Shown here: in pieces, positions 1,159 through 27,204 of the stretch
Numbering within the stretch: position 1 is the stretch's first letter
Layout of the letters: every line of letters begins with the position of its first letter
Source: a virus
Lineage: Duplodnaviria > Heunggongvirae > Uroviricota > Caudoviricetes
Direction: 5' to 3' (one strand)
Length of the DNA: 64,000 nucleotides
IMG/VR virus record: IMGVR_UViG_3300042895_002216
Translations under genes and position numbers: made by a program
Notes under the pieces: model-generated
Database searches by the model: none
What the model saw: the letters and a program-made list of their open reading frames with translations, nothing else
What the model was told of the DNA's origin: nothing

Positions 1159-1461
1159 ATGAAGCACATTAAACTATTTGAAGAGATTAACCGAGAAGAC
1201 GAAGACGAATTATCTGCATTGGGCTTTGACACAGACGACCTTAAACTTAGACGATTTGCTCAACAAGTTTCGGACGAGATCCTTGACGAATACGATTATG
1301 CGGTAGACTCAGGCCGAATATCTGCTAGAGAATATTCCCCCGAAGAAATGTACAAGTACGTAAAGGAACTTTGTTCAGACAACGATATCACAGCAGACGA
1401 AGTAATTGCTGACTTTGAATGGCGCTCGATTACTTGGGAACTTGGGCTTGGAAACATATAA
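1159..1461 (+). CDS. leader-family small acidic protein (MKHIKLFEE N-terminus)
   Basis: 100-aa ORF starting MKHIKLFEEINREDEDELSALGFD. The N-terminus is shared with more than 15 paralogous leaders elsewhere in the window. Confidence 0.6.
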   Translation: MKHIKLFEEINREDEDELSALGFDTDDLKLRRFAQQVSDEILDEYDYAVDSGRISAREYSPEEMYKYVKELCSDNDITADEVIADFEWRSITWELGLGNI

Positions 1462-2923: not shown

Positions 2924-3505
2924 ATGAAGCATATTAAACTTTTTGAGAACTGGTTTCAGGACGTAGAAGATAACGTTGATCGTAAGAGATTTGCGCCTGA
3001 GCTAGAACCTGAAGAGACTAAACCTGCTGAGACTGAAGAAGACCCGGCTGAACCTGAAGAGGAGAAGCCCGATACTCAGGAAGAACCTAAAGCAGAAGAG
3101 CCTACTGAGCCAGAGACATATTCCGGTTGGTTAAAGACCCAAGCTGGCGTAAGCGAAGTTGTTGAAGCTGAAGAAGGTACAGACAATTCAAATGGTTGGG
3201 TTCGCTTGTCAAATGGAGTATCCATTCAATGGGAAATCGATATGCGAGACTATCCGTTCCTTTCCGTAAGTTATATGCTTGATAAAAAAGTAATTCAGTT
3301 AGCTGATAATCCAGCCGGCGATCTTGCTCGACAATTCTACAAAGAGGGCCGTGAATACATTCCTAGAGAATGGGAGTCTGTTGTAATTAAAATAGGTGCA
3401 GGTGTTCCAGCCTTGATAAAGGATGCAATTGCTTCAAACAAGCGACGAATGAAGGAGCAGGACGAGATCTTATCAGGTCAAATCGTTGCAGCTTTTAGCA
3501 AATAA
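2924..3505 (+). CDS. leader-family protein with acidic Pro/Glu-rich linker
   Basis: Starts MKHIKLFENW, followed by a PEEEKPDTQEEPKAEEPTEPE low-complexity stretch and a C-terminal globular part. ATAAATAAT at 2912-2920. Confidence 0.6.
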   Translation: MKHIKLFENWFQDVEDNVDRKRFAPELEPEETKPAETEEDPAEPEEEKPDTQEEPKAEEPTEPETYSGWLKTQAGVSEVVEAEEGTDNSNGWVRLSNGVSIQWEIDMRDYPFLSVSYMLDKKVIQLADNPAGDLARQFYKEGREYIPREWESVVIKIGAGVPALIKDAIASNKRRMKEQDEILSGQIVAAFSK

Positions 3506-3513: not shown

Positions 3514-3828
3514 ATGAAGCAGCACGTAAACCTATTCGAAGAATTCGATAACGACCAAGAAGAATTAAAATCCATGGGCTTCCGTAGCAAGCCAGACGGT
3601 TCACCTGACGAAAGATTCGACGAAGCTGTATCAGAGTGGTATCAAGATCCTGAAGTAACTGCAGCAATCGCTCTTCTTAAAAGAAAATCAACTGAAATCC
3701 TTGAAAAATGGATAGATTTTTCAGACGATGAGGATGAAACTGAATTTGACCAACGAGTATCATGGGTATACGACAATGGAGTTGATGACGTAGGCTGGTT
3801 TGAATTCGTAACAATGCTTGATAATTAA
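3514..3828 (+). CDS. leader-family small acidic protein
   Basis: MKQHVNLFEEFDNDQEELKSMGFRS is paralogous to the 1159 ORF N-terminus. ATAAATAAC at 3502-3510. Confidence 0.6.
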   Translation: MKQHVNLFEEFDNDQEELKSMGFRSKPDGSPDERFDEAVSEWYQDPEVTAAIALLKRKSTEILEKWIDFSDDEDETEFDQRVSWVYDNGVDDVGWFEFVTMLDN

Positions 3829-4506: not shown

Positions 4507-4540
4507 CCCACGGATAAATAACCAAAAGAATTAATCTTTA

Positions 4541-4765
4541 ATGCAACATATTAAATTATTCGAACAATTTATAGCAGAATTCACAATGACTGAGCCGATT
4601 GTTAAACCTGCGCCAGTTAAAGAGCCTAGCACTCGACCTGCAACTAGACCCAAACCTAGTCCAATTCCTAGCAAACAACCGTTTAAACAACCTGAGCCAG
4701 CTAAGGCTCAAGCTGAGGATGTAATTGCTCGCCTAAAAAGTCTAGAATCAAATGAAGAGCTTTAA
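4541..4765 (+). CDS. leader-family Pro-rich small protein
   Basis: MQHIKLFEQF followed by a P/K/A-rich repeat region. ATAAATAAC at 4514-4522. Confidence 0.55.
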   Translation: MQHIKLFEQFIAEFTMTEPIVKPAPVKEPSTRPATRPKPSPIPSKQPFKQPEPAKAQAEDVIARLKSLESNEEL

Positions 4766-6110
4766 AACATTCTTAAATGAAGCTGACATTCGTCAGAACC
4801 CAGCAATAACTCCAGAATACTTAGGATCTCTTGATAAACGAGCAGAACAGAGCGCTCGTGAAGTTGAACAGAGACACGGTCGAGATATGGGTAGCCTAAT
4901 GAGAGCTGTCCGTGAAGTACAGATGTTACAACGCGGTAAAGAACGCCAGCTTGAAGAGTTAACTACTTCAGTAATCCTAAGCCAGTACGGTTCAATTCTT
5001 GGAGAAACTGAGTTAGACATTAAGATTCCAAACGATCCTCGTGAAATGAAAGCGAAGATGAAGGAGACTGATGACGACGATCAAGAAGATCAGGACAAAC
5101 CCAATTTCAAAGAGATTGAGGATGAGGATACTAAAACAGCAATCAATAAACGTAAGATCCTAAACATGATCGCTCAAGGCGAAGCCATTAATTCAAAGAA
5201 GATGTTAATGGGCGATGAGAACATGGAAGGTCTAACTCAATTATTTGGAGAGGCTAATGCCCGTAAAATGGTAGAGCTGCTAGTTACGATTACTGATATT
5301 TGTAATGCTAGAGACTGGAGAATACCTGAAGAGGTTGGAGCAAAAATGATTGAGCAAGGAGATTCCCTTGCCGGTATTTCAAAAATTGAATGGAAACCTA
5401 AATCTAAAAAGGATAACGATGATGATCAAGGTCAAGAAGACGGAGAGTCTGAAGAAGAGACAGTTGACGAAACGACTGTTCCTACCTTAGTTATTAGAGG
5501 AATGGACCAAGCAATGTTATTCCATGAATCTATTAAAGCAATTTGGGGACTGATTAATCAAGGAGGTCTTGCTAATCTAGACGATGAGACTATCCGAAAA
5601 GTGTTCATGAATACTGATACTGCCGCTGACGAAGTACAGGATCTTAAACGTGCTAAATTAACTGCAGCTGATCTTAGAGATTTTATCCAATCTTTCGAAG
5701 AAGTATTTGATATTGAAAACGGTAGAGAATACGTATGGGGTAAAATGATTGACTCAACAGTCGTATCTGATTCTGACTTCTTGGACCTAATGAAATTAAT
5801 ATTCACAGCAGCTCCGTTATACAGAACAGTTGGCGAACAGGAACCTCAATACACAGAGTCTGAAATCGCTGCTGCTAAAGAATCTTTTCCTAAAGCCAAA
5901 GCCATAGTAAATAACTTGATCCGTCTAATTAAACAGGAACTTGCTGATTGGGAAGACTCTCAATCTGATTCTAGCTACGATGAGCCTGACTTTACTATGC
6001 CAGCCAACGATAGAGAACTTGATCAAGTTGATATTCAGAACATGATTGATGCAGCTCTAGATAATAGAGACTTCGCTGAAGTTGAAAGGTTAAGTAACTT
6101 ACTTAAATAA
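4752..6110 (+). CDS. leader-family large acidic protein
   Basis: MKSFKTFLNEADIR N-terminus (K-x-F-x-x-F-x-NEA variant of the leader). 452 aa with D/E-rich segments. 14-nt overlap with the upstream gene. Confidence 0.6.
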   Translation: MKSFKTFLNEADIRQNPAITPEYLGSLDKRAEQSAREVEQRHGRDMGSLMRAVREVQMLQRGKERQLEELTTSVILSQYGSILGETELDIKIPNDPREMKAKMKETDDDDQEDQDKPNFKEIEDEDTKTAINKRKILNMIAQGEAINSKKMLMGDENMEGLTQLFGEANARKMVELLVTITDICNARDWRIPEEVGAKMIEQGDSLAGISKIEWKPKSKKDNDDDQGQEDGESEEETVDETTVPTLVIRGMDQAMLFHESIKAIWGLINQGGLANLDDETIRKVFMNTDTAADEVQDLKRAKLTAADLRDFIQSFEEVFDIENGREYVWGKMIDSTVVSDSDFLDLMKLIFTAAPLYRTVGEQEPQYTESEIAAAKESFPKAKAIVNNLIRLIKQELADWEDSQSDSSYDEPDFTMPANDRELDQVDIQNMIDAALDNRDFAEVERLSNLLK

Positions 6111-6113: not shown

Positions 6114-6959
6114 ATGAAGCATCTTAAGATATTTGAAAGTTGGGTCAACGAATCCCTTACTGCTGATCAAATCGCTGATAAAATTCAAATAGCCGTTGCT
6201 GGTTCAGGAACTGCAGAGGGTGATTTAGTATCAGCAATCAAGTCTATTCCCGATGCTGCATCCATGGTTCGTGTAAACAAAGCACTTAAAACCGGGTTCG
6301 ATACAAAGAGCTGGGATTACGCAAGTGTTGGCGATGCAATTACCGGAGAACTTGGATCCTTTGATCAAGATTACTTGGATCAAATCAACACTCACATAAA
6401 GAATATTAGAGCTGAGAAGTACTTAGGATCTTTCGTTGCTCCTCCTCCACCTGAAGATACAGTATTAAAGGTTATTGAGCCTAGGGTAATCCAACATGAA
6501 GGCTACAAACCAAAGAAGTACATAGACTCTAAAGGAAATCCAACAGTCGGTGTAGGATTCAATCTAAACCGCTCTGACTCAACGTCAATGCTTAGGTCAG
6601 TTGGTGCAAATCCAATAAAGATAAAGTCAGGCCAGTCTGCATTAACCGATCAGCAGATTAAAGCTCTTCTGCATACTGATCTTCAAGCCGCAAAGTCTTT
6701 AGCTAAAACTTTAGTATCAGATAATGGGAAAGTCAGCATAGCTAAAGTTTGGCCAAGCTTGCCACAATCAGTACAAGGAGTCTTAATTGAAATGGTATTT
6801 AATTTAGGAGCTAAAGGCCTATCTGAGTTTAACACGTTTCTACTTCACATAGCTTCAAAGAATTTCAAGGCTGCATCCAAAGAGATGTTAAATTCTTCAT
6901 GGGCAAAACAGGTCGGTAATCGAGCAATAACTCTATCTAACATTGTTAAATCTGCATAA
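6114..6959 (+). CDS. leader-family protein with GH24 (T4-lysozyme-like) domain
   Basis: MKHLKIFESWVNE leader. HEGYKPKKYIDSKGNPTVGVGFNL carries the Glu/Asp/Thr catalytic arrangement of T4-type lysozyme. Confidence 0.75.
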   Translation: MKHLKIFESWVNESLTADQIADKIQIAVAGSGTAEGDLVSAIKSIPDAASMVRVNKALKTGFDTKSWDYASVGDAITGELGSFDQDYLDQINTHIKNIRAEKYLGSFVAPPPPEDTVLKVIEPRVIQHEGYKPKKYIDSKGNPTVGVGFNLNRSDSTSMLRSVGANPIKIKSGQSALTDQQIKALLHTDLQAAKSLAKTLVSDNGKVSIAKVWPSLPQSVQGVLIEMVFNLGAKGLSEFNTFLLHIASKNFKAASKEMLNSSWAKQVGNRAITLSNIVKSA

Positions 6960-6980
6960 CTTTAGTATATTATTACTAAG

Positions 6981-7403
6981 ATGATAGCAGAAAACCGAAA
7001 AGCCCGACACGAATACACATTTTTAGAGACATGGACCGCTGGGATCTCCTTAACTGGATCAGAGGTCAAGTCAATTAAGGCGGGTAACCTTGACTTTACT
7101 GGATCCTGGTGCGAACTTCGGTCAGGTGAATGCTTCTGTCGAGAACTGTACATAAAAGAATCAACCTCAGCATACAGTCACCAAGGTAAACGAGAGAGGA
7201 AGCTACTCTTAACTAAAAAGGAACTAAAGAAACTAAATAAACTGATGGACAGGGGCCTCACAATCGTTCCAGTAAAGATCTTCGTTAACTCGTCAGGTTT
7301 AATTAAGATTGCGATTGCTCTAGCCAAAGGAAAGAAGGATTGGGATAAGCGACATGTTATTAAAGAACGAGATCTCAGCCGAGCTTTAACCTCTGAATAC
7401 TAG
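6981..7403 (+). CDS. smpB: SsrA-binding protein SmpB
   Basis: NRKARHEYTFLETWTAGISLTGSEVKSIKAGNLDF ... RKLLLTKKELKKL ... IALAKGKKDWDKRHVIKERD aligns motif-by-motif with bacterial SmpB. The TAGTATATTAT motif at 6963-6973 sits immediately upstream, so the mRNA is probably leaderless. Confidence 0.85.
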   Translation: MIAENRKARHEYTFLETWTAGISLTGSEVKSIKAGNLDFTGSWCELRSGECFCRELYIKESTSAYSHQGKRERKLLLTKKELKKLNKLMDRGLTIVPVKIFVNSSGLIKIAIALAKGKKDWDKRHVIKERDLSRALTSEY

Positions 7404-7432
7404 AATAAATAACCCTGAAATAATTACATTAA

Positions 7433-8266
7433 ATGCCAAAGTACATTAAATTATTTGAAGCTTTCCAAAACGAAGCCCAAGCATATAAGTTCGATCCAAC
7501 TAAATCAGTCTTAACTGGAGCTGCAGTATACAGTGCTGGAACATCATACGCTAAATTTACACTAGGTCGAATCTATATTGCGACTGAAGATAATGAATCC
7601 ACCAAAAAAGCACCAGGAAACGTATTAGTCCTTTTAACGGCTAAGAACAAGGACGTTGAGAAAAAACTTACTGATCTTGGTGGAGTGGCTGCGGCTCTTC
7701 AAGCTAGCGAAATTAACGAACCGCCTGCAGCTGGAGGTGGAGTCTACAAGTATCAAGCATCCTACATATTTAATTTAACTGATCCAGTTGCAGGAGATCA
7801 AATTCTTGGTAAAATTGCAGCTGCTATTAACACAGCACCGACTGGTTCAACTGGAACAAGCGGTACAGCTGGAACTGCTGGAAGCAAGGGAGATTACGCA
7901 GAAGGTTTCTTTGGAAAAGATATTATGACAGCTTTTAGATCGCATGTCGCCGATGTTACTGGAGTTGCATATCAAGCAGCAACCAGTATTCCAGCGTATC
8001 AAGCATCTCTTCAAAACAAGGAACTAAACAAGAGACTTAATTCGGATGCTGAATTTTTAAAGTTAATGAAAGAGGTTGAAGAGCAAGCTAAGTTAACAAA
8101 CGTTGTTGACTTTACTACTGGAAAAACGAAGGATGGAAAGATCGATGCAAAATATCTTGAAATAAGAAAAAAGGTTGCAGCTAGAACTGAAGTAATTAAA
8201 AGTCAGTTAATGAATGCTGGTTCTACCGGTACATCAGGTACGGCTGGTACCGCAGGTAAAATCTAA
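7433..8266 (+). CDS. leader-family protein with Gly-X-Y (collagen-like) repeats
   Basis: MPKYIKLFEAF leader. GSTGTSGTAGTAG occurs twice. ATAAATAAC at 7405-7413. Confidence 0.6.
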   Translation: MPKYIKLFEAFQNEAQAYKFDPTKSVLTGAAVYSAGTSYAKFTLGRIYIATEDNESTKKAPGNVLVLLTAKNKDVEKKLTDLGGVAAALQASEINEPPAAGGGVYKYQASYIFNLTDPVAGDQILGKIAAAINTAPTGSTGTSGTAGTAGSKGDYAEGFFGKDIMTAFRSHVADVTGVAYQAATSIPAYQASLQNKELNKRLNSDAEFLKLMKEVEEQAKLTNVVDFTTGKTKDGKIDAKYLEIRKKVAARTEVIKSQLMNAGSTGTSGTAGTAGKI

Positions 8267-8276
8267 TTAATTGTTA

Positions 8277-9416
8277 ATGAAGCACTTACAACTGTTTGAA
8301 AACTGGAAAGACGAATTATCTACAAGCCAATCTCAATTGGCTGAGCTCGATGCTCTGCGCGATTTCGCAATTATATCAGCAGACGATTACGCTCAACAAG
8401 GAAAGGCTCTTCTGAGCAAGATCGCTGGAATTAATCGTAAACTTCTTAAAGACGCTGATGCGACTCATCCTCGATGGTCAGCTGAGTGGTTAGCTGAAAT
8501 TTCTGAGTACCCTTCTCTTACTTGGTTAACTGATTCGCTAGCTTCGCCTGAATTACAGTCACTATTGGCAAAAGGATTTTATCCATGTTCAAGTAATATT
8601 CAACTGGGAAACCGTACCTTAATGCTATCTAAAAATCCTAACTATTCTCCATTAACTGATACAGCAATTGGATTCTTTTCTTCAATTAATGTAGTACGTC
8701 GAATCGTGCAGAAGCCTAATCCTAAGATGACTTACATGGATCAAAAGCTTAAAGAACTAGATGGAGGTCTTTCTCCAGTAGAGTTCATGAAGCAGGCAAG
8801 TCTATGGGTTCAGGAGAATTTAGTTCTAGAAGTAGACTACCTTCCAAGTAAAAGAGCTTATGCAAGTGATGTAAAGAAAGAGAATCAAGTCGAATTAATG
8901 TATTCAACTCTTGAGACTAAATTTGCAGAGCGCGGCGTTAATTTAGATAGAACACAAATTAAAGCTCTTCCAATTCGAGGTCTGTATCACGGGTCAGTTG
9001 AGATGGCAAAATTAATAAAGCTGCTACAAAAGCAAACCGATCAGTCAAAACCTCTTGAGCTGCCGTTAAACGAGTGGAGTAAATACACTCAGTCAGAAAT
9101 AGATGCAATGTCTAATCCTAATTTAGTATGGACCGTTTCAGCAAACGGCCAGCTCCGATTTGGGTTAGGCTACCCTTACGACAACAATATCCCAACCGAT
9201 ATTAGCAGATTAAATATCAAGCTTGAGTCTACGACTATTCTTGATTACGTATCGGCTGCTAGTACTCAGGTTACGAATCAGTTATTAACTAAATTATCTC
9301 AAGCTGGACTGCAATTCATACAGAAGCTTGAGTGTCCAACTGAAGAGATTGACTTGGACATGTACCCAACTATTCAAGTTAATGAAATCAAAAATATCAG
9401 AGACCAACGTCGATGA
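8277..9416 (+). CDS. leader-family protein
   Basis: MKHLQLFENWKDEL leader. 380 aa. Confidence 0.6.
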   Translation: MKHLQLFENWKDELSTSQSQLAELDALRDFAIISADDYAQQGKALLSKIAGINRKLLKDADATHPRWSAEWLAEISEYPSLTWLTDSLASPELQSLLAKGFYPCSSNIQLGNRTLMLSKNPNYSPLTDTAIGFFSSINVVRRIVQKPNPKMTYMDQKLKELDGGLSPVEFMKQASLWVQENLVLEVDYLPSKRAYASDVKKENQVELMYSTLETKFAERGVNLDRTQIKALPIRGLYHGSVEMAKLIKLLQKQTDQSKPLELPLNEWSKYTQSEIDAMSNPNLVWTVSANGQLRFGLGYPYDNNIPTDISRLNIKLESTTILDYVSAASTQVTNQLLTKLSQAGLQFIQKLECPTEEIDLDMYPTIQVNEIKNIRDQRR

Positions 9417-10849
9417 AACACATACAGCTATACGAAAGCTGGATATTTGAGAATGTCCAAGCAGCAAAAGCATACATGCTTAAGAGAGCAGCACAGTCTC
9501 TAGGAAAAGAAGTAAGTGAACTTACTCCTGAGGAACAGACTCGTGCTCTAAACAATCGTCAATACCTAGAAGTACTTGAATTACTTGGTCAAAAATACAA
9601 TGGTTACTTAGGAACTTTCGTTAAATTCCATTTCGAACAGAGAATTTCAGTAGACCAATTGAAACAACTATTGGACCAAATGATTAAGTACCGTCAACTA
9701 GTTAGCACTCTTCCATATACACTAGATGCCTATTCAAACGGAAATCCTGAACCTGGATCTACAGTTTCAGGTTTTGAAGCGCTAATGGACCAGTTCAGAA
9801 CATTTGAATTTAATTCCAAAGGTAAATGGATAATTGATGCTCTTCCTAGAGAACTTAGAGATCAGGCTCGTGCTCTTGATCCGGAAAAACAAAAGGAACT
9901 TATTCGTATTGGTTGGACAATCGCTGATCAGGGCGAAGCTATTCAAAAGAGAGTAATGTCCAAAGTTGCTCGCTACCGAACTATTCAAGATTTCATGAAG
10001 TATGCATTAGATATTTCAAGCTCAGATGAAGGTTCTCAAAAATTAGTAGCTCAAGCTGAAAGTCTTTCTCCTGAAATTCAGGTAATGTACGATGATAATA
10101 ATTACGTGGTCTTTTCAGTTAGGACTGAAGCTGCACAGAAAGCAATATTCCGTATGGCTAACTGGTGTCTAAACACTGGAAGTTGGGACTCTTATGTAAG
10201 TCGTGGAGTTCAATTAAATATCCTTAACTTTAATGTTCCGAATAGTGATCCAATGTTTGTAACTGGAACAACAGTCCTTGCCTCAGACTCAAGTGTTAAA
10301 GCGTCACACGATGCAAACGACCGCAATATAAAGAAAGATTCTGATCCAGCTACTCATTTACAAATGAACGGCTATCCGGAAGATCTTGTTAATCAAGTAA
10401 TTGCACTACTTCCGTCTGAGATAGTGGTGAAGACTGTTCTTGCAAATATTATGTCTAAAGCAGGAGTTGATGCAAAGATCCAATCACTTGCGGTTGCAGG
10501 TCATGATCTAGAAACCCTAACTGATCCAGTCGCTAGAGAACAGGTTGAAAGAGATTTGCTAATTATTATTGATAACGAATTTGAATCAGAGAATTTCTCA
10601 ACTGAAGCAATGTTGGAAGGATTCAAGAAACATGGAATACTTTCAATGTTCGCTGCTAAGCTATACCATAAACTTCTAGTAGGTAAAATCTCTCAAGAAG
10701 ATGTTGATGCAATCTTTGCTAAGACAGAAAGAGGCTTTGAACTCTTAACCAGAAATGTAAACAACTGGCCTGATCCAAAGATTAAGGCAAAGATTACTGC
10801 CGTGCTTGCCGCGAAAGATCAAATTCTGAATTTAGCAAGAACTGTCTAA
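9413..10849 (+). CDS. leader-family protein
   Basis: MKHIQLYESW leader. 478 aa. ATGA-type overlap with the upstream gene. Confidence 0.6.
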   Translation: MKHIQLYESWIFENVQAAKAYMLKRAAQSLGKEVSELTPEEQTRALNNRQYLEVLELLGQKYNGYLGTFVKFHFEQRISVDQLKQLLDQMIKYRQLVSTLPYTLDAYSNGNPEPGSTVSGFEALMDQFRTFEFNSKGKWIIDALPRELRDQARALDPEKQKELIRIGWTIADQGEAIQKRVMSKVARYRTIQDFMKYALDISSSDEGSQKLVAQAESLSPEIQVMYDDNNYVVFSVRTEAAQKAIFRMANWCLNTGSWDSYVSRGVQLNILNFNVPNSDPMFVTGTTVLASDSSVKASHDANDRNIKKDSDPATHLQMNGYPEDLVNQVIALLPSEIVVKTVLANIMSKAGVDAKIQSLAVAGHDLETLTDPVAREQVERDLLIIIDNEFESENFSTEAMLEGFKKHGILSMFAAKLYHKLLVGKISQEDVDAIFAKTERGFELLTRNVNNWPDPKIKAKITAVLAAKDQILNLARTV

Positions 10850-10873
10850 GACTTATTTAGTATAATAGTCTTA

Positions 10874-11488
10874 ATGATAGACAATTTACAACTTATTAAA
10901 CCCCTTTTAAACTTTTCAGAGAAGGGAGACTTCTATATGCTGTACGTGTTTAAACGTAAGAAGGATCAGCCGGAGGGAGAGAGAGACAATCACCAGTCAG
11001 TTAGAACAATCAAAACCTATTGTATTGAAAGCCTTGACCATTTAGATAGAAGATGGGAAGAGATCTTGCAGTTATGTGAGATGTTTAAGGCTCGTGCATA
11101 CATTCATGTACAAAAACAGAATCATTTTGACGTTAGCTTAAACATGATGGTTGCTCTTGCTCAAAGAATTCAAGACGGCAACACCAATCAAAAGGGTCTG
11201 TTCGACTCAGTCGTCGGTCAAATCAAAACTCAAGAAAAGAGATGGATTGTTGATATCGATACTAAAGATGAGATCACAGTTCATAGGATCGTTCATATAA
11301 TCGATTCAAATATAAAGCCTGAGGGCTCAAAGATTATTACATGTATTCCAACCAAGAACGGTTATCACCTGATCACCAAGCGTTTTGATGTATTGGAGTT
11401 TACAAAATACATGAAACTTCAAGGAGATGTTCCAGATATTCAAAAGAAGAACCCTACTTTATTATATTATCCAAATAGTTTAGATTAA
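10874..11488 (+). CDS. hypothetical protein
   Basis: 204-aa ORF. The TAGTATAATAG motif at 10858-10868 ends about 6 nt before the ATG, suggesting a leaderless mRNA. Confidence 0.5.
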   Translation: MIDNLQLIKPLLNFSEKGDFYMLYVFKRKKDQPEGERDNHQSVRTIKTYCIESLDHLDRRWEEILQLCEMFKARAYIHVQKQNHFDVSLNMMVALAQRIQDGNTNQKGLFDSVVGQIKTQEKRWIVDIDTKDEITVHRIVHIIDSNIKPEGSKIITCIPTKNGYHLITKRFDVLEFTKYMKLQGDVPDIQKKNPTLLYYPNSLD

Positions 11489-11490
11489 TT

Positions 11491-11688
11491 ATGCAAAATC
11501 AAATCATTCAAGACGTATGTCTTTATTTCTTATTCGGTATTTGTTGGATGATACTCGTTGAGTACATCGACTCCAAACAACCTGAGAAACAGTTAACTGT
11601 AATTGCTAGAATAGTAATTATCGTAACGTGGCCGCTAGCCGCATTCATTGGGATCCTAACCCTAATTCGAAAATCATTAAACAATTAA
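11491..11688 (+). CDS. small membrane protein
   Basis: 65 aa with two hydrophobic helices. Confidence 0.4.
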   Translation: MQNQIIQDVCLYFLFGICWMILVEYIDSKQPEKQLTVIARIVIIVTWPLAAFIGILTLIRKSLNN

Positions 11689-11690
11689 CA

Positions 11691-11900
11691 ATGGCAAAAA
11701 CCGTAGTAGTAAAAGAACAGTTCAGAACAAACGAACTAAGCCTAAACCCAGGTGGGTACACAGTTACCGTAGTATATTCAAACGGCGACAAGCGAGTTTA
11801 TAATAACGTAAAGAATCCCAAAGCCTACATTGGATCAATATCGAAAGCACAAGATGTTTCTCAAGCCCTAGTTGACGGAGAACTTTATTGGTCTCGATAA
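11691..11900 (+). CDS. hypothetical protein
   Basis: Start moved to MAKTVVVKEQ to avoid overlapping the previous gene. Confidence 0.4.
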   Translation: MAKTVVVKEQFRTNELSLNPGGYTVTVVYSNGDKRVYNNVKNPKAYIGSISKAQDVSQALVDGELYWSR

Positions 11901-11916
11901 ATAACTAGAAAGCACT

Positions 11917-12723
11917 ATGCATAAATTAAGTTTCGTTTGCACGTCCTATCGTAGGTACCGTTGCGTTGAACGAATAATCGAACAGTACTTACAACAAGAC
12001 TATCGAAATGCTGAGCTAATTATCTTAAATACTGATACTGACAATCCATTTCGGTTATCTGATGGATTGCTGTATGCAAATATTACAGTAATTAATAATT
12101 CAATTGATTACGTTACTGGATTACCGTATACTAATCGTGGAGCCATTTGTAGAGATGCAGTCTCCCATGCAACTGGCGACTACTTCATGTTAGCTGATGA
12201 CGATGATGTTTACTTGCCTTGGCATTTTAGACAAGCAGTTGAAGGTATAATTGAAATCGGGCACGATTCATGGAAACCTGAGATGAGTATGTTTGCGGCT
12301 CCTAATAAGCTAGAGCTTGTTCGTAATACAATGGAGGCATCCGTTATTGTAAAGATGCACAGAATCAGAGAGATTGGTTTCCGAACTGATGCAACCGGGT
12401 ATGAAGGTTTAAGCTGGTACACCAAGCTTAGAGATGAGGGTCAATTGGACGAGCACAACCCACGATATATTCCTTCTTACTGCTTTAACTGGTCAGATCC
12501 AGCTGAATTGGCTGGCCATAAACAGAGCGGCGATATCAACAATCCAAATAACTTTGAGAACCATAAGTTAAGTTCAAGAGATATTTCAGATAAGCCACTA
12601 GATCGCTGCGGCTCTCTAGAGATTACTAAGTTCTATCAAAAGTACTTTGATTTCTTACGAGCAAATCAAGATAAGTTCAGTCAAGATCTTTGGGGCAGGT
12701 ACGCAAAAACGTATATCGGTTAA
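11917..12723 (+). CDS. glycosyltransferase-like protein (GT-A fold, DxD)
   Basis: LSFVCTSYRRYR..IILNTDTDN..GDYFMLADDDDVYLP resembles the nucleotide-sugar binding region and DxD motif of GT-A glycosyltransferases. ATAAATAAC at 11897-11905. Confidence 0.5.
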   Translation: MHKLSFVCTSYRRYRCVERIIEQYLQQDYRNAELIILNTDTDNPFRLSDGLLYANITVINNSIDYVTGLPYTNRGAICRDAVSHATGDYFMLADDDDVYLPWHFRQAVEGIIEIGHDSWKPEMSMFAAPNKLELVRNTMEASVIVKMHRIREIGFRTDATGYEGLSWYTKLRDEGQLDEHNPRYIPSYCFNWSDPAELAGHKQSGDINNPNNFENHKLSSRDISDKPLDRCGSLEITKFYQKYFDFLRANQDKFSQDLWGRYAKTYIG

Positions 12724-12747
12724 GAATTTGTCTAATAAATAACTTAG

Positions 12748-13893
12748 ATGAAACACTTAAAACCATACAACCAGTTCCTTAATGAGGGAGAATTCTACAA
12801 AGGAGAATTGAACTCTATATTCTGGCAGGACCAGAAGTTTAACCCAGAGGTTCGTACGAAACTTTTGCAGATTGCAACTGATTTCTATACTGACCTAAAA
12901 GTTGAAGCACCAATCATAGACATTCATTTGACTGGATCTCTAGCTAACTTTAACTGGACAGAACACTCTGACTTGGACGTCCATGTTATTCTAGACTTTA
13001 CTATTATCGGAGATGACGTTGAGCTTGTAAAGAAAGCAGTTGATGGATTACGTTTTATCTGGAATCTTAGACACCCAGTAAAGATCCAAGGTTTTGATGT
13101 TGAATTGTATGCACAAGACAAGGACGAACCACACGTTGCATCAGGTTTATATTCCCTAATGAAAGACGAATGGATCACGGTTCCTGAACCAAGTAATCCA
13201 CAGATTGACGAAAAGGATGTTTACCGTAAAGTAGAGGCATTCATTACTGAAATTGAGGAACTTGAAAAGGAAGTAGTTAAGTCAGATTCAGATCAGGCTA
13301 GAGAAGTACAGGACAGAATCTCTGCTCTTAAACAGAAAATCATGAAGGCTCGTAAAGAGGGTCTTGCTGCAAACGGTGAGTTCTCTATCGAGAATCTAGT
13401 ATTTAAACAGTTGCGTAATCAAGGTTACCTTGAGAGATTGATTGACTTAGGCGCTGATGCATATTCCCATATCTATTCTGAACCAAACGATTCACTAGAC
13501 GATAAGCCATCTGATGTAAACGAAAATATCTCAATGGGAAAAGGCAGTTGCGTTCTAGTACTTGGTCCTGAAGTTCAGGGTCAAAAGAGACTATTCGCGT
13601 TTCATGCAGAATACATTAATGAAGTTGAACGAAACGGTTGGCAAGTAAAAATGGTTGGACTTGGCGCTCCAAGTCTGGTTGTTAATCAAGACGGTAGACT
13701 TGTTGCAAAGCAGGTTAACATGAATGCTGCTAATCTAAAGAAGTTCGCAGGTCTTTCCAGCAATACAGTAGTCTTAAATTCAAAAACCAAGACCCCATAC
13801 TGGCACCAAACCGTTAAGTACACGAATCATCAAACTCTACTAAACGACATGGGTCGTACATTAATGTCAATTCCCGGAGTTTCTTTCGACTAA
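12748..13893 (+). CDS. leader-family protein with minimal nucleotidyltransferase (Pol-beta-like) domain
   Basis: MKHLKPYNQFLNE leader. LTGSLANFNWTEHSDLDVHVILDF matches the GS..(9-13)..D-x-D signature of the minimal NTase fold. ATAAATAAC at 12735-12743. Confidence 0.6.
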   Translation: MKHLKPYNQFLNEGEFYKGELNSIFWQDQKFNPEVRTKLLQIATDFYTDLKVEAPIIDIHLTGSLANFNWTEHSDLDVHVILDFTIIGDDVELVKKAVDGLRFIWNLRHPVKIQGFDVELYAQDKDEPHVASGLYSLMKDEWITVPEPSNPQIDEKDVYRKVEAFITEIEELEKEVVKSDSDQAREVQDRISALKQKIMKARKEGLAANGEFSIENLVFKQLRNQGYLERLIDLGADAYSHIYSEPNDSLDDKPSDVNENISMGKGSCVLVLGPEVQGQKRLFAFHAEYINEVERNGWQVKMVGLGAPSLVVNQDGRLVAKQVNMNAANLKKFAGLSSNTVVLNSKTKTPYWHQTVKYTNHQTLLNDMGRTLMSIPGVSFD

Positions 13894-20105: not shown

Positions 20106-20657
20106 ATGTTAAAATCATTTAGCCAATTCGTAACTGGATTATTTGAAAAGAAAGGAGACGCTCATAGTTATGGATGTGCAATGGTCTATTTCAATTTTCC
20201 AACAATGCCTGAACTGCATTCAAAAATAGATGAAGCAGATATCTACACAGAAGAGGGCGATCGTTCATACGGTCTTGAGGATGAACCTCATACAACTCTT
20301 TTATATGGACTTCATTCGGCAGATATTAATGACGCTAAGGTATTAGAGATATGTAAATCTAAACCAATCGGTCAACTGACTCTACATAATGCATCTCTAT
20401 TTGAGAATGCTAAATACGATGTACTTAAGTTTGATGTAGAAAATCCAGTGTTGGCTGAGATTAATGCAGAACTTAGTAAGTTACCTCACACTACTGATTT
20501 CCCAGACTACCATCCACATGCAACAATCGGGTACCTAAAGCCTGGAACCGGCAAGAAATACGTTGACTTATTTAATGGTAATCGGCATGAAGTCGCTGCT
20601 CATAAAATAGTTTATTCAAAACCTGACGACAGTCGAATCGAAGAAGAATGGAATTAA
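20106..20657 (+). CDS. 2H phosphoesterase superfamily protein (LigT-like) with degenerate leader
   Basis: Two H-x-[TS]-x motifs (EPHTTLLYG and HPHATIGYL) spaced as in 2H cyclic phosphodiesterases / 2'-5' RNA ligases. The N-terminus MLKSFSQFVTGLFEKKG resembles the leader family. Confidence 0.6.
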   Translation: MLKSFSQFVTGLFEKKGDAHSYGCAMVYFNFPTMPELHSKIDEADIYTEEGDRSYGLEDEPHTTLLYGLHSADINDAKVLEICKSKPIGQLTLHNASLFENAKYDVLKFDVENPVLAEINAELSKLPHTTDFPDYHPHATIGYLKPGTGKKYVDLFNGNRHEVAAHKIVYSKPDDSRIEEEWN

Positions 20658-21281: not shown

Positions 21282-22025
21282 TTAAAAGATATACTTTAAA
21301 AGAACTGACGCAGTTTCCTGAGAAGGATTAACTGAGTCTGTTATGTAATGAGGGTAACCTTGATAGCTATACGTATAAACTAATCCTATTTCTAAATTCT
21401 TTTTAATCTTAAGTGCGATTGTGTTTGTACTTCGCATGTTTAAATTATCTAGAAAAGAAACTTCTCTGCTTGAATAAATTGCTGGCTGAAATAGAGTAAC
21501 TGACGAGATCTTAATCAATCCGCTTTCGTAATTTGCTCTAAGTCTAGATGATGCTCTTACTGTAAAGTTATTATTTGAAACCTTAATGCTGGACCAAAAA
21601 TACTCTGGCAAAATTACTTCAGAGAAAACAATATCGAACTTCTTATTCTTGATAATTGATACGCCTAATCCCAAACCAGCTGAGCTTCGAAGATCTATTT
21701 TTCTCATGTATGATCTCTCATCTTCAGTAAATCCAATAACTTTAAACTTACCTATCTGTTTTGAAATATTTCCAGTCAAGTAGACTTCATTTTCGTACTG
21801 AGTCATTTCAGATTTTCCATACGCGGATTGCTTGCTCCAACGGTAAGTAGTATTTAGATTCCATTGATACGATCCAGTATCTCTTTTTAATTCAGCTTTC
21901 GTTGTAATACCAATTGCACTAAAGTTTCCCCTAGTTCCATCTCCTCCAACCGATATTGATTTTTTAATTTGACTAAATACAGGTAATGAGACTGTCAGTA
22001 ATAGTATCGTTAATATAAACTTCAT
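21282..22025 (-). CDS. secreted protein, possible outer-membrane beta-barrel
   Basis: Signal peptide MKFILTILLLTVSLPVFSQ. Alternating hydrophobic beta-strand-like pattern and a C-terminal aromatic residue. Confidence 0.45.
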   Translation of the reverse strand: MKFILTILLLTVSLPVFSQIKKSISVGGDGTRGNFSAIGITTKAELKRDTGSYQWNLNTTYRWSKQSAYGKSEMTQYENEVYLTGNISKQIGKFKVIGFTEDERSYMRKIDLRSSAGLGLGVSIIKNKKFDIVFSEVILPEYFWSSIKVSNNNFTVRASSRLRANYESGLIKISSVTLFQPAIYSSREVSFLDNLNMRSTNTIALKIKKNLEIGLVYTYSYQGYPHYITDSVNPSQETASVLLKYIF

Positions 22026-22492
22026 TATTTGTTACGTGTATTTTTTAACTGTATTATTTGGTTAACTGCATTTAGGAATAACCAGTCCTCGACATCAGTT
22101 AACTTACATAAAAAATTATATTCATGCATGTAACACATGAGCTCCTCTTCTCTTGCTGTAAACTTAATCAAGTTATTCCATAAGTACAGGTGATACGACT
22201 CATGCACCAATACGGCCGCTAAATTATTAATAGACGGACTAGTTACGTCCTTTGTATTAATCACAATAGTATTGGGTGGAAGGTTAGTAGATCTATCGCC
22301 CATTATAAACTCAATTCGTTTACAATTCGTAATCAGAGTTTGGTAACTAACTGAGTCAGTATCTTTTACAAGTAAAATAGCCCTCTCGACTCTAGCCTTC
22401 CAGCCGTCTCCGACATCGTCTATTACTATTTGAGAAAATCCAAATACTGGAATCGTTAATATTAATACAATTAAGGCATTTTTAAAATACAT
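22025..22492 (-). CDS. secreted protein with HExxH motif
   Basis: Signal peptide ending FSQ. VLVHESYHL is a zinc-metallopeptidase-type motif. Confidence 0.45.
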   Translation of the reverse strand: MYFKNALIVLILTIPVFGFSQIVIDDVGDGWKARVERAILLVKDTDSVSYQTLITNCKRIEFIMGDRSTNLPPNTIVINTKDVTSPSINNLAAVLVHESYHLYLWNNLIKFTAREEELMCYMHEYNFLCKLTDVEDWLFLNAVNQIIQLKNTRNK

Positions 22493-22944
22493 TGTTCAAG
22501 TGCTTTTTTGATAGAATTAGATACTGTCATTTTAGAAAACGGCATAGCACCCTCTTCCAATTCAATCATTACGGCTCTCACCTCAGTCTCAGACTCGCCA
22601 GTCCCTTCGTACTTTTGCCCGTTATAATAAATTCGAACAGCGACTTGTGTAACCTGCTCAGTCTTTTCTATTCCAGCAATACGTATGGTACTTTTAGGAA
22701 TACCGAAATAATAGATCTCAATCTTAATTGGGGATCCTGCATCAGATAGACAGTATTTAGAAGAAAGTAGGTCTTCTGCTATTTGCTTTACACCAAACCG
22801 AATATCACGGTTTCCTAATTCCCTAACCTTTGCGGTAGAATATACTGTGTCTATTTTAATACACATGTGAATTGGGCTAGTTTGCGAAAAAGCCAGCAGC
22901 TGTACCAATAGTAAAACTGCAAGCAATAAAATAAACTTCTTCAT
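22471..22944 (-). CDS. secreted protein
   Basis: Signal peptide MKKFILLLAVLLLVQLLAFSQ. Confidence 0.45.
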   Translation of the reverse strand: MKKFILLLAVLLLVQLLAFSQTSPIHMCIKIDTVYSTAKVRELGNRDIRFGVKQIAEDLLSSKYCLSDAGSPIKIEIYYFGIPKSTIRIAGIEKTEQVTQVAVRIYYNGQKYEGTGESETEVRAVMIELEEGAMPFSKMTVSNSIKKALEQCILKMP

Positions 22945-22957
22945 CTTATAAAATTTA

Positions 22958-23239
22958 TTATTTTTTTAGTTCAATTATTGCATCCTCAACGTATTTATCA
23001 CGTTGGTCTTGTAAGTATTGTATTCGATCGAGCATAATTTGTTTATCATCCTTTACTGTTTGCTCAGTATAGGCTTTTTGTGCTTCATATAGTTTTTGCC
23101 AATACGCTACACGCTCTTCCATCATCACGCCTTGATACCAAATAACCGCTATCATAAGTACGATGGTAAATGATTGTTCTTTTAGTTTAGAAAAGAAGGT
23201 ATCCGTAAATCCTGAAGTAGGGTTTGTTTCTTCTGCCAT
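22958..23239 (-). CDS. small membrane protein
   Basis: One TM helix (FTIVLMIAVIWYQGVMM) and a charged C-terminal coiled segment. Confidence 0.4.
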   Translation of the reverse strand: MAEETNPTSGFTDTFFSKLKEQSFTIVLMIAVIWYQGVMMEERVAYWQKLYEAQKAYTEQTVKDDKQIMLDRIQYLQDQRDKYVEDAIIELKK

Positions 23240-23259
23240 ATTTAATTTGTTTTTTTTAT

Positions 23260-24438
23260 TTATTGTGTATAGCCAGTCCGTAACAGATAAAAGCTAGTAG
23301 TTCCTCCATTAGTTGGTGTTGAAATAATCATTGATTGAACTCCTGGTATACTGGAGCGTAGATCACTTGTCCCGGAATTAATAGTTGTCCATTGAGCTGG
23401 CGTAAATATCCGATACGACGGATATGCATTTATCCAATTTGGAAATCTACCTGAAATTTTACCGAATATGCAATAGGAATCCGTTACATTAAACCGAGTA
23501 TCTTGATTAACGTCCATTGTATAATACAATTTAGAGCTTGGCATCACCGAGTATAATAACATTTGAATAGGGTATTGAGCAGCAGTTGATATTGGATTAC
23601 TAATAGTCAGATTTTCTAATCTAATTTGGAAATCATGGGACGCGTCATCTAAATTAGGTACCATTGAATATAGACCCAACGAATTAGTGTAATATGTTCC
23701 CTTTATGCTGAATGTAGTTTCCGGTGAAGCTGGTGTAAATCTAACTGAATAATTAGTTGCGCTCCATTGAGATGCATTCTTTCCACCGACTGGAACAACC
23801 GTTGACGAAGAAGTTGATATTAGACCGGCGGTCGCGTTATTACTACCACATAAAGGTTTTGAGGCATAATTTATATCTATTAAATTCGACGTTTCATATA
23901 GAATGAACTGAAATGTGTGTAGATTTGTTCTACACCCATAATGCGGAACTGCATTAAAAGAGACAGTCAACGATCTATTGGGCGATGTTCCTGATGTTAC
24001 GTATCTGATGTTAGCTGATCCAGGAAATAAGTCCTCCCAATCCGCTAAAATTGCGTTTAATGGAGACCCTGCATTTGGAATAAAGGCTGCAGTATATCCA
24101 GTTGTTTGGCCCGAGCTAAACCCGATCCATCCATTTGATCCAACGTAAAATTGAGTATACGTATTTCCAAAGTAGGTAAAACTAAATCCTATATTAAATG
24201 GTCCATGTGTAGCATCGTCCGATGATGGAATTACGGTACCGGTTGTATAACTAGGAGAAGTCGGATAAGTAGGAAAAGTTACTTCATATTGAACAATCCT
24301 TTTGCCGTATAGCAAGACTGGTATATTTTGTAAGCCTTGACCATTAGCTCCATAAACATATCCTGAATAAGTAAATGGTTGAGCATACACCGACCCTATA
24401 ATCAATGTAGCAATTAGTGTGATGATAAACTTTCTCAT
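23260..24438 (-). CDS. secreted protein
   Basis: Signal peptide MRKFIITLIATLIIGSVYAQ. 392 aa, rich in T/S/N/Y. Confidence 0.5.
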   Translation of the reverse strand: MRKFIITLIATLIIGSVYAQPFTYSGYVYGANGQGLQNIPVLLYGKRIVQYEVTFPTYPTSPSYTTGTVIPSSDDATHGPFNIGFSFTYFGNTYTQFYVGSNGWIGFSSGQTTGYTAAFIPNAGSPLNAILADWEDLFPGSANIRYVTSGTSPNRSLTVSFNAVPHYGCRTNLHTFQFILYETSNLIDINYASKPLCGSNNATAGLISTSSSTVVPVGGKNASQWSATNYSVRFTPASPETTFSIKGTYYTNSLGLYSMVPNLDDASHDFQIRLENLTISNPISTAAQYPIQMLLYSVMPSSKLYYTMDVNQDTRFNVTDSYCIFGKISGRFPNWINAYPSYRIFTPAQWTTINSGTSDLRSSIPGVQSMIISTPTNGGTTSFYLLRTGYTQ

Positions 24439-26105
24439 AATAGCATGCGAGTTCCCAGCATGATGGTATAGTTTAATGTGGATTCATTAATCGCCCAAGC
24501 TCCACCGGCGTTTATGTTAAGCTTAAATCGTTTAGTTATCCCGATATTAGTTCCCATAATAGGTAAAACCACATGTGGTGATTTTAATAGAACATCATTA
24601 TAGTAACTAACGTATGGGGCATACACGTACAAACATAACATTTTTACTGAAATTCTCTTAGAGATTTTCCAGTCATACATTCCTCCAGCAATAGCAGCAG
24701 TTCCTATAAAAGCAGTCCCTGATACTTGGCCGACTGAACCGGTTAGCATATAAAGAGCTTTTAGGTTTTTCGGCTTATTTAGAGTCCACATTTGACCTAC
24801 TGCTAATGTTCCATAGACAGTCATTTGTCTTTCAAAACCAATAGTAAGCGATGTAGAGATTAAATCTATTCTTCGCTTATTCATGAATGCATAAAAGCCT
24901 GTAATATTTGGACCCTTTATAGCAGTCGTATAGTCTGCACTAATTCCGTGAGATCTCTTTCCGTCCCATCTCATTGATGAGTAACCTCCAGTGACCTTTC
25001 CTCCAACTGTAACATCTGAATTTTTAAAATTGAATCCAACGAAATCGCTGCTTGCTAAAATACTAGGTCGATTCCCATTTTTATTAGAGGCACCGGCTGC
25101 TCCTCCACCTGCGGAAGTTGATTCCTGTACTGAACCAACTGATCCGCCAATTAAGTTAGTTTTTCCACCTGCTTCTGTTTCAGAAGTTGGCGTTGACTGA
25201 TTATTTGAGCCGCTTGTTCCAGAGCCAGCGGTCGTTCCAGACCCGCCTCCATTAACATTGCCGCTATTTGAAGTTGATCCGCTAGCTTGAGATCCGGTAG
25301 TTCCGTTGCCGGTTGTTGATCCGCTTCCGGTAGTTGAGCCGGTCGTTGAACCGCTTCCGGTAGTTGAGCCGGTCGTTGAACCGCTTCCAGTGGTTGATCC
25401 ACCTGCTTGAGACCCAGAGGTTCCATTGCCAGCTTGAGACCCAGCTGTTCCGTTACCGGCAGTTGATCCTGGTTCTCCAGATCCTCCGCTGCTTGTCGAG
25501 CCAGTTTCGTTCGAACCTTGAGTCTGTGAGCCCTGTGTCGTAGAAGATCCACTACTGCTAGTAGAGCTCCCATTGTTACTAGTGGTCCCAGAGTTAGAGC
25601 TACCACCAGTACTTCCATTAGATTGTGCATTTGTTGAAGTACTATTTTCTGCAGGTTTATCCGCCCCGCCTTTATTTTTGGAGTTACCCTTTGACTTGGA
25701 GGAATTTTGTACACTAGAGACAGTTCCGCCAATCATATTACTTGATCCGCCAGCCATATCAGATAGAGCCGATAATGAGTTTACTATTCCTAGAAAACTA
25801 ATTGCTGTATTTTGTGCTATATTAACTGAAGTAGGCATTCCTACTAAACTTGCACATGGGTTGTTATTACCAAAGGAAGAATAAACGCCTTGAGCCCATG
25901 TCTCAAAACCTCCATTGTAAAAATCCGTTGGTTGAAATGTATTTACTTGACCGTAATAGGTTACTGTTATTCCGTTTGATGGAACTTGTATTGTTTTGTT
26001 TATTCCAGTACATGGATCAGTGTAATTGTAGGAAAAGGTTTGAGCCATTCCCAATGACGATACTAAGATCCACGCAATAAGCAGTATAATTTTTTTAACA
26101 TACAT
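24435..26105 (-). CDS. secreted protein with long G/S/T-rich low-complexity linker and C-terminal beta-barrel-like domain
   Basis: Signal peptide ending GMAQ. (GSTTGSGSTTGSTT)n linker encoded by perfect 30-bp tandem DNA repeats at 25321-25380. C-terminal ~200 aa has alternating hydrophobic residues. Confidence 0.5.
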   Translation of the reverse strand: MYVKKIILLIAWILVSSLGMAQTFSYNYTDPCTGINKTIQVPSNGITVTYYGQVNTFQPTDFYNGGFETWAQGVYSSFGNNNPCASLVGMPTSVNIAQNTAISFLGIVNSLSALSDMAGGSSNMIGGTVSSVQNSSKSKGNSKNKGGADKPAENSTSTNAQSNGSTGGSSNSGTTSNNGSSTSSSGSSTTQGSQTQGSNETGSTSSGGSGEPGSTAGNGTAGSQAGNGTSGSQAGGSTTGSGSTTGSTTGSGSTTGSTTGSGSTTGNGTTGSQASGSTSNSGNVNGGGSGTTAGSGTSGSNNQSTPTSETEAGGKTNLIGGSVGSVQESTSAGGGAAGASNKNGNRPSILASSDFVGFNFKNSDVTVGGKVTGGYSSMRWDGKRSHGISADYTTAIKGPNITGFYAFMNKRRIDLISTSLTIGFERQMTVYGTLAVGQMWTLNKPKNLKALYMLTGSVGQVSGTAFIGTAAIAGGMYDWKISKRISVKMLCLYVYAPYVSYYNDVLLKSPHVVLPIMGTNIGITKRFKLNINAGGAWAINESTLNYTIMLGTRMLL

Positions 26106-26119
26106 TTGCGTTTCATATT

Positions 26120-26839: not shown

Positions 26840-26841
26840 GA

Positions 26842-27204
26842 TTATTCGGTTACGTTATTTGAAGTAGTATTAGAAAGAGATACTCCATCTTCTTCGTCAA
26901 CCTTTTGAATTAACATTTTATCACGATCTTCTGAATTGAACCAGTAGTCAACTACTTTATTTAGGTTACCAACAAAGGCTCCCAATAAAAGAAGTAGTAA
27001 TTCTTTCCAATCTTCTGCGATTGTTACTCCAAAAAATACAGCTGAATTAATTCCAGCAATAATAAAGAAGAAAAGAAATAGAACGATTCCTGTAATTTTC
27101 CAACGGTTTGACTGCATTTGTTGTAGCATGTAGTAGAAGCGATTCTTGTCTTCAACCTTTACGTATGCAGATTCACCGATTAATAATTTTTTCAAATTAG
27201 ACAT
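26842..27204 (-). CDS. membrane protein (holin-like candidate)
   Basis: 120 aa with two adjacent TM segments, upstream of the endolysin on the same strand. Confidence 0.35.
   Translation of the reverse strand: MSNLKKLLIGESAYVKVEDKNRFYYMLQQMQSNRWKITGIVLFLFFFIIAGINSAVFFGVTIAEDWKELLLLLLGAFVGNLNKVVDYWFNSEDRDKMLIQKVDEEDGVSLSNTTSNNVTE

Follow-up and report, generated by a model that had tools for sequence, protein, structure and literature searches.

We analysed a 64,000-nucleotide stretch of Caudoviricetes DNA (IMG/VR record IMGVR_UViG_3300042895_002216; hereafter the window) and, within it, two plus-strand open reading frames (ORFs), one belonging to the GH24 or T4-type lysozymes (ORF 6114-6959) and one a predicted Pol-beta superfamily nucleotidyltransferase (ORF 12748-13893). 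Both proteins begin with a 13-residue tag that heads at least 16 otherwise unrelated ORFs of the window and that resembles the capsid targeting sequence of phage T4. We propose that this tag may be a T4-type propeptide loading both enzymes into the prohead, a reading to which we give about even chances. An earlier note on this DNA had described the two ORFs as fusions of a shared leader to a catalytic region; the ORFs, their common leader and both catalytic regions were indeed recovered.

A common N-terminal tag on unrelated proteins

The tag follows the pattern MKH[IL]K.[FY]..[FW][ILV].E. A leader pattern was found at 14 of the 147 N-termini of long plus-strand ORFs, as compared to 0.58 on average, and never more than 5, in 1000 shuffles; inspection by eye gave 16-17 leader ORFs. 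Three forms occur, MKH[IL]K[LI][FY]E.[FW], MK[LR].(K)RF[ST]QF[IV].E and MKSFKTFLNE. In 16 of 17 leaders, a motif [LIV]xE, of the type recognized by the T4 prohead protease gp21, ends at residues 8-14. The tags of the lysozyme and of the nucleotidyltransferase read ..FESWVNE and ..YNQFLNE, respectively. Besides these two enzymes, the carriers comprise a 2H phosphoesterase and acidic or coiled-coil proteins. The phosphoesterase (ORF 20106-20657) matches the Pfam families Acb1 (directed against the cyclic-oligonucleotide-based antiphage signalling system, CBASS) and 2_5_RNA_ligase2 at about 25 bits, just below the cut-off of 27.

The leader codons vary synonymously between paralogues and between orthologues, which argues that the tag is selected at the protein level; synonymous change is rarer in the leader than downstream of it. 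A leader is kept in all the N-terminally complete homologues listed for both proteins. In the structural models, the tags are predicted with low confidence (predicted local distance difference test, pLDDT, below 50 for residues 2-12 of the lysozyme and 1-13 of the nucleotidyltransferase), as for a detached segment that is not part of either fold.

Several of the tagged proteins are small and very acidic. A second motif, (E)EL..[LM]GF, follows soon after the leader in ORFs 1159-1461, 3514-3828, 34843-35394 and 57581-58912, and this shared motif suggests a paralogous family. That the small acidic leader proteins may be DNA mimics is speculation. The N-terminus of a helicase (ORF 55256-56992; MSKLTRDFEEFIKG) also fits a loose version of the leader pattern; it has no [LIV]xE and the resemblance is probably due to chance.

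Likeness to the T4 capsid targeting sequence

In T4, a capsid targeting sequence is carried by IPI, IPII and IPIII, which are internal proteins, and by Alt (Mullaney and Black 1996, as reviewed in PMC5694885 and PMC3012670). According to these reviews, the internal proteins are a diverse cargo with the targeting sequence as their sole common part. The T4 propeptides are 10-20 residues long; through them, the internal proteins and Alt attach to the scaffolding core, before gp21 cuts the propeptides off. Processing sites reported for gp21, such as ITE-6 and LTE-619 in Alt, have the same form as the [LIV]xE motif of the window.

The likeness to T4 extends to several features. In both cases, a short N-terminal tag (10-13 residues) stands on otherwise unrelated proteins of one phage, and this tag ends in (L/I)xE, the cleavage motif of gp21. 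Some versions are close in sequence, as shown by a comparison of MKTYQEFIAE of T4 with MQHIKLFEQFIAE of ORF 4541. The genes also lie behind a TATAAATA-like motif, and the cargo includes an enzyme of a host-modifying type, Alt in T4 and the nucleotidyltransferase in the window. On the other hand, the host of the window phage is probably not enterobacterial, and an annexin-lysozyme, a nucleotidyltransferase and an Acb1-like phosphodiesterase would be new to this role.

Propeptides are also found in the giant phages phiKZ and SPN3US, where many head-internal proteins are processed at a short x-E motif by a prohead protease related to gp21 and where the propeptides are assumed to direct proteins to the prohead (PMC5694885). 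However, those propeptides are mostly longer than 100 residues and end in (S/A/G)xE, whereas the window tag has 13 residues and [LIV]xE, in the T4 style.

The annexin-lysozyme protein

The protein encoded by ORF 6114-6959 has 281 residues, with an internal HEGYKPKKYIDSKGNPTVGVG sequence, and consists of the leader, one annexin repeat and a GH24 lysozyme domain with the Glu/Asp/Thr triad of T4 lysozyme (Table 1). Pfam Phage_lysozyme (PF00959) matches residues 127-270 with 39.2 bits (cut-off 22.3). The AlphaFold model, with a pLDDT of 92.6, aligns to T4 lysozyme in Foldseek with a template modelling (TM) score of 0.77 over 164 columns. E129, D138 and T144 are invariant across 72 homologues; by hand alignment of the motif, they correspond to E11, D20 and T26 of T4 lysozyme. 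Membership of the GH24 family is thus clear and muramidase activity is predicted. The T4-lysozyme-type region claimed in the earlier note therefore stands, as does its fusion to the leader; the annexin repeat between the two had been missed.

The annexin repeat was not detected by Pfam hmmscan. With a profile of this module against the PDB, the 60 matches listed, out of 74 at E ≤ 10, were all annexins, with a best E value of 3.6e-17. G30-S-G-T33 and E79 (in GELG) are conserved in the module. The repeat suggests Ca-dependent membrane binding, or action at a Ca-rich membrane surface. No annexin-endolysin fusion from a bacteriophage appeared among the titles listed by a full-text literature search.

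The best PHROG match of the GH24 protein is 'endolysin'. It need not be the endolysin of this phage, because the window also holds an endolysin-type protein with PG_binding_1 and GH19 domains as well as an SLT transglycosylase. As regards relatives, the protein shares the GH24 fold and the triad with the T4 gene e lysozyme and with the lysozyme domain of gp5, and the internal virion lysozymes of T7-like phages (phrog_2083) give a precedent for virion-borne muramidases. A gp5-like tail lysozyme was ruled out, since the alignment is limited to the lysozyme domain and the window protein, unlike gp5, has neither OB-fold nor beta-helix.

A separate module was also observed in this context. The C-terminal module KKLKWHDSDAPDANGKF...NPSYAKKMESTREAVKRKL of leader ORF 57581-58912, in which its first motif occurs twice, also extends a lysozyme-protein homologue of 68% identity (P0124) and looks like a second shuffled module.

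The nucleotidyltransferase protein

ORF 12748-13893 encodes 381 residues. Its GSLANFNWTEHSDLDVHVILDF sequence corresponds to hG[GS]-x10-DxD, and G63, S64, D75, D77 and a third carboxylate, E119, are invariant across 65 homologues, in agreement with the Pol-beta-like core that had been claimed. E13, the last residue of the leader, is kept in at least 90% of the nucleotidyltransferase homologues. The structural model (pLDDT 84.9) comprises the leader (1-13), the core with a helical bundle (up to about residue 245), a linker and a C-terminal domain (266-381). Because of the helical bundle and of the separate beta-rich C-terminal domain, the protein is not the 'minimal' nucleotidyltransferase of the earlier description.

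The protein belongs to phrog_36119, which comprises more than 1600 proteins and in which a GEFSxENLVFKxLRN motif is conserved. Matches outside this family are weak: 18.3-19.6 bits to Pfam NTP_transf_2, under the gathering score of 21; E values of 0.02-0.05 in Foldseek to LinB, ANT(4'), AAD(9) and KNTase; and a profile match to the DrrA AMPylation domain at E 0.004. With LinB, ANT(4')/KNTase, AAD(9) and DrrA/SidM, the window protein appears to share a Pol-beta core followed by a helical bundle, and it shares the GS...DxD...E residues. It differs from them by its own family, its extra C-terminal domain and the marginal scores.

The beta-rich C-terminal domain is missing from shorter homologues of about 250 residues. 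It is without a relative in Pfam or the PDB and lacks conserved residues of a catalytic type. Foldseek matches to norovirus 3C-like protease (E 0.05-0.3) raised the possibility of a protease, which was ruled out as no His, Cys, Ser or Asp is conserved and no PDB or Pfam match was obtained. A HEPN-MNT toxin-antitoxin pair was ruled out as well, the protein having 381 residues in three regions and its gene neighbours being a glycosyltransferase and a topoisomerase. Across phages, the core is constant and the architecture around it varies, from about 250 residues in other phages to the extra beta domain of the window. In the 735-kb phage LR756501, the module forms the C-terminal part of a 544-residue protein with its own leader (locus L177, 19059-20693).

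The motif upstream of the tagged genes

The sequence ATAAATAA occurs 19 times in the window, as compared to 7.0 copies expected, and 17 of these are on the plus strand. It lies 4-5 or 17-22 nucleotides before many ATG codons and is found upstream of 10 leader genes, a tail-collar gene, a PA14 gene and the GH19 endolysin-like gene. Copies are also located 170-220 nucleotides upstream of both tRNA arrays, which speaks for a signal of transcription rather than of translation. At several genes the motif is only 4-5 nucleotides away from the ATG, and the mRNAs would therefore be leaderless or have a very short leader.

The position 4-5 nucleotides before the ATG is kept in nucleotidyltransferase orthologues of 52-77% identity. 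In a T4-like cyanophage, the canonical TATAAATA precedes a three-gene operon containing the nucleotidyltransferase. From its sequence and placement, ATAAATAA looks like a T4-late-type promoter. Scans for sigma-70 promoters and terminators gave chance-level results. In one clade, in which the nucleotidyltransferase adjoins a protease gene (loci L030-L088), a conserved GGATATATA is observed upstream instead of ATAAATAA; these genes have no ATG start and probably start with GTG or TTG.

Tags and head genes in other phages

Each nucleotidyltransferase orthologue was found to carry the tag version of its own genome. The protein of Maribacter phage Molly, Molly1_26, begins with MNLKTLVETDKS, and eight other ORFs of Molly carry K.L[VI]E[ST]. 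In cyanophage DSL-LC02 the nucleotidyltransferase starts with MNLQEFVDKK and the adjoining ORF with MKTFQDFLEE; in Caulobacter phage Cr30 the start is MRKFSQLLED. In the huge phage LR756501 it is MLKYNSFIKEEFE, with similar tags on neighbouring genes.

Gene order also links the nucleotidyltransferase to head genes. In 27 of 80 IMG/VR loci, its gene is followed on the same strand, 2.7-3.6 kb downstream, by an S77 protease-scaffold fusion (E 1e-19 to 1e-23), and a gp23-like capsid gene comes after the fusion in at least 24 of these 27. An S77 domain of that type is present in LR756501/503, LR745206, LR756502 and LR756504 as well as in all Lak phages, and these are the huge phages in which the nucleotidyltransferase occurs. 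All the complete genomes checked that encode the nucleotidyltransferase thus encode an S77 protease too. In LR756501 the order is portal, protease-scaffold, capsid. Molly likewise encodes a gp23-type capsid protein and an S77 protease.

Head loci in IMG/VR related to LR756511 (L100-L167) have a conserved small ORF of about 100-130 residues beside the head-morphogenesis genes, about 2 kb from the S77 protease and on the opposite strand. In these huge phages, it starts with MKTFQQYIED, MKKFSDYLAE or MKTFHQYLEE, which are similar to the T4 targeting sequence. By queries with protease and capsid of the LR756511 type, this clade was found to be separate from the huge phages that bear the nucleotidyltransferase.

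Packaging and other explanations of the tag

If the tag is a packaging propeptide, transcription of the tagged genes would occur late, from ATAAATAA promoters. By means of the amphipathic tag, the proteins would attach to the prohead's scaffolding core, and a gp21-type (S77) prohead protease would then cut the tag off after [LIV]-x-Glu, with Ser14 and Gly14 as the predicted mature N-termini of the lysozyme and of the nucleotidyltransferase. The mature enzymes would remain in the filled head and exit with the DNA. The analysis itself shows the domains, their catalytic residues, the tag with its distribution, the linkage of the genes and the motif upstream of them, and from these we infer targeting, cleavage, late timing and ejection. 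Because the same tag heads so many unrelated ORFs, the packaged set would be large; it would include the annexin-lysozyme, the nucleotidyltransferase and the Acb1-like phosphodiesterase. The nucleotidyltransferase might then correspond in function to Alt, which T4 injects.

The idea of the earlier note that the leader specifies packaging gains from the T4-tag likeness, the gp21-type motif, the per-phage versions, the linkage to S77 protease and capsid genes and the late-promoter-like motif, and loses from the fact that neither the window nor the 10 kb upstream of it yielded a head gene, the S77 protease included. Several other observations weigh against packaging. A scan of genome contigs with an S77 profile for the prohead protease of this genome returned unrelated contigs of metagenome-assembled genomes (MAGs) only. 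A search with the LR756501 protease gave mostly short fragments, none of them on the known long contigs, and one weak protease match beside a ClpP gene was uninformative. The candidate set is much larger than that of T4, with at least 16 proteins in 64 kb, mostly acidic and up to 478 residues long; the internal proteins of T4 are three in number, small and basic. Genes for SmpB, RNase H, a sigma factor and a glycosyltransferase lie between the leader genes, and some copies of ATAAATAA overlap stop codons. In cyanophage and in Cr30, the nucleotidyltransferase gene adjoins the DNA polymerase gene, and in the 27 linked loci it marks the boundary of replication and head genes. The similarity of the nucleotidyltransferase to solved enzymes is also low (Foldseek E about 0.02, DrrA E 0.004).

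The roles suggested for the enzymes after injection fare less well than packaging itself. Because T4-type internal proteins enter the cytoplasm with the DNA, an injected muramidase would meet no substrate there. Together with the other endolysin candidate of the window, this weakens the proposal that a wall-degrading enzyme is injected at entry. Cyclic-oligonucleotide signals, toxins or tRNA ends, put forward as substrates of the nucleotidyltransferase, found no support, the nearest solved relatives being, with weak scores, antibiotic nucleotidyltransferases and DrrA. Wall digestion at entry and any particular nucleotidyltransferase substrate are speculative.

Three other explanations were weighed against packaging. 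The one that survives best, which we regard as unlikely, is that the tag works at the protein level for another purpose, such as recognition by a chaperone or protease of phage or host, a non-capsid assembly or intracellular localisation, with the enzymes acting in the infected cell late in infection. It would suit a tag that is portable and conserved at the protein level, the position of the leader genes among non-structural genes and a cargo whose number and acidity are unlike those of the T4 internal proteins. The window also encodes a ClpP, but none is present in the approximately 12 kb around the nucleotidyltransferase genes of cyanophage or Cr30, where tag-like N-termini occur. Moreover, another purpose leaves unexplained the [LIV]xE ending of nearly all leaders, the near-identity of some of them to the T4 tag and both the linkage to S77 protease and capsid genes and the co-occurrence with S77.

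Next in order, and rather improbable in our view, is that both enzymes simply belong to the usual late proteins of the cytoplasm or of lysis. The GH24 protein would be a holin-released endolysin that its annexin repeat tethers to the membrane, the nucleotidyltransferase would serve in replication or anti-defence, and the N-terminus that they share would have no meaning beyond that of a short structural helix. The 'endolysin' label of the best PHROG match agrees with this, as does the DNA polymerase gene next to the nucleotidyltransferase in two T4-like phages, and Ca-dependent membrane binding by the annexin repeat would fit the periplasm. However, the GH19 endolysin-type protein and the SLT transglycosylase are already available in the window, the 12-13 N-terminal residues are modelled with low confidence, like a detached segment and not a part of either fold, and the same tag is present on more than a dozen unrelated proteins.

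The third possibility, a gene-start cassette (promoter, translation-initiation region and first codons) spread by recombination, maintained for the sake of expression and without a function in the mature proteins, has a small chance only: it would account for ATAAATAA so close to several ATG codons and for the lower synonymous change in the leader, but the aromatic and Glu positions survive synonymous and conservative changes across phages of cyanobacteria, Caulobacter and Bacteroidota, hosts that differ in initiation signals, ORFs 9413, 57581 and 4752 overlap the preceding gene, have no upstream motif and are still tagged, and the copies of ATAAATAA upstream of the tRNA arrays show that the transcription signal is separable from the tag.

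Features and context of the window

The positions of the features are collected in Table 1. The window encodes T4-type topoisomerase II subunits, RNase H, an extracytoplasmic function (ECF)-type sigma factor, SmpB, ClpP and a glycosyltransferase. It contains 26 tRNA genes, in two main arrays (33559-39216, 53120, 59084-60011). Neither near-identical DNA in the phage collection nor an exact 42-mer match in IMG/VR was found. Proteins identical to those of the window, the lysozyme protein among them, are encoded on contigs of up to 271 kb from freshwater metagenomes; a 180-kb contig from Lake Mendota (JGI sample 3300002835) includes the window's start. The source is a large uncultured jumbo phage, probably with a Bacteroidota host. 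NCBIfam added nothing for the window proteins.

On the minus strand, a block of ORFs at 21282-29537 has N-termini that resemble signal peptides, as judged by eye. The C-terminal end of one of them (27615-29537) resembles, also by eye, a C-terminal sorting domain of the type IX secretion system (T9SS). Such a block is unusual for a phage genome.

Table 1. Features of the window, with positions counted from its first nucleotide.
Feature	Position	Strand	Remarks
Lysozyme leader, residues 1-13	6114..6152	+	MKHLKIFESWVNE; [LIV]xE sites end at residues 8 and 13
Single annexin-type repeat, residues 14-105	6153..6428	+	GxGT and conserved GELG acidic residue
GH24/T4-lysozyme domain, residues 121-281	6474..6956	+
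Lysozyme catalytic codons	E129 6498-6500; D138 6525-6527; T144 6543-6545	+
ATAAATAA motif before nucleotidyltransferase	12735..12742	+	5 nucleotides before the ATG; resembles T4 late promoter TATAAATA
Nucleotidyltransferase leader, residues 1-13	12748..12786	+	MKHLKPYNQFLNE; LNE ends at residue 13
Pol-beta-type nucleotidyltransferase core and helical bundle, residues 14-245	12787..13482	+
Nucleotidyltransferase catalytic codons	G63-S64 12934-12939; D75 12970-12972; D77 12976-12978; E119 13102-13104	+
Beta-rich C-terminal domain, residues 266-381	13543..13890	+	motif VLNSKTKTPxW
Leader ORF	1159-1461	+	small, strongly acidic protein
Leader ORF	2924-3505	+	small, strongly acidic protein
Leader ORF	3514-3828	+	small, strongly acidic protein
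Leader ORF	4541-4765	+	MQHIKLFEQFIAE; just upstream of lysozyme; ATAAATAA at 4514-4521
Leader ORF	4752-6110	+	MKSFKTFLNE; 452 residues; widely conserved; directly 5' of lysozyme
Leader ORFs	7433-8266, 8277-9416, 9413-10849	+	between both enzymes; ATAAATAA at 7405-7412
2H phosphoesterase/Acb1-like protein	20106..20657	+	leader-like N-terminus MLKSFSQFVTGLFE
Leader ORFs	34843-35394, 35421-35984	+	MKLKRF[ST]QFV.E; ATAAATAA before each
Leader ORFs	56997-57581, 57581-58912, 60278-61174	+
ATAAATAA sites, examples	2912, 3502, 4514, 7405, 12735, 34818, 35394, 56985, 60248, 62162, 36032, 58909
SmpB	6981-7403		Pfam 152 bits; among leader genes
Tad6 (type I Thoeris inhibitor) match	33866-34564		Pfam 78.8 bits, E 5.5e-22; ORF without leader
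ClpP	41139-41804

Wider meaning

In the literature searched, the exact leader strings led only to a paper on T4 that contains MKTYQEFIAE, and the matches listed for 'capsid targeting sequence' combined with cyanophage, jumbo-phage or huge-phage terms contained no joint mention. No description of a T4 targeting-sequence system with an expanded enzyme cargo, in jumbo phages and in another host group, was found there.

A broader view, which we put forward more tentatively than packaging itself and consider possible rather than probable, is that one ancient N-terminal address tag is common to a wide range of the T4 superfamily, from cyanophages to 735-kb huge phages. Jumbo phages of Bacteroidota would have expanded its use to preload dozens of proteins as an injected arsenal for take-over and anti-defence. 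This load would comprise the annexin-lysozyme, the nucleotidyltransferase or AMPylase, the Acb1-like cyclic-nucleotide phosphodiesterase and the acidic candidate DNA mimics.

If the tag does load proteins into the prohead, the injected proteome of an uncultured jumbo phage would be predictable from its sequence alone. T4-type cargo would extend past the three small internal proteins and Alt, to enzymes whose targets would be the cell wall or membrane, proteins or nucleotides of the host and possibly the immunity based on cyclic nucleotides. With the short natural tags, the capsids of Bacteroidota and cyanobacterial phages could then be loaded with foreign proteins. Overall, the T4 targeting system would be old and widespread, and not a speciality of the T-even phages.

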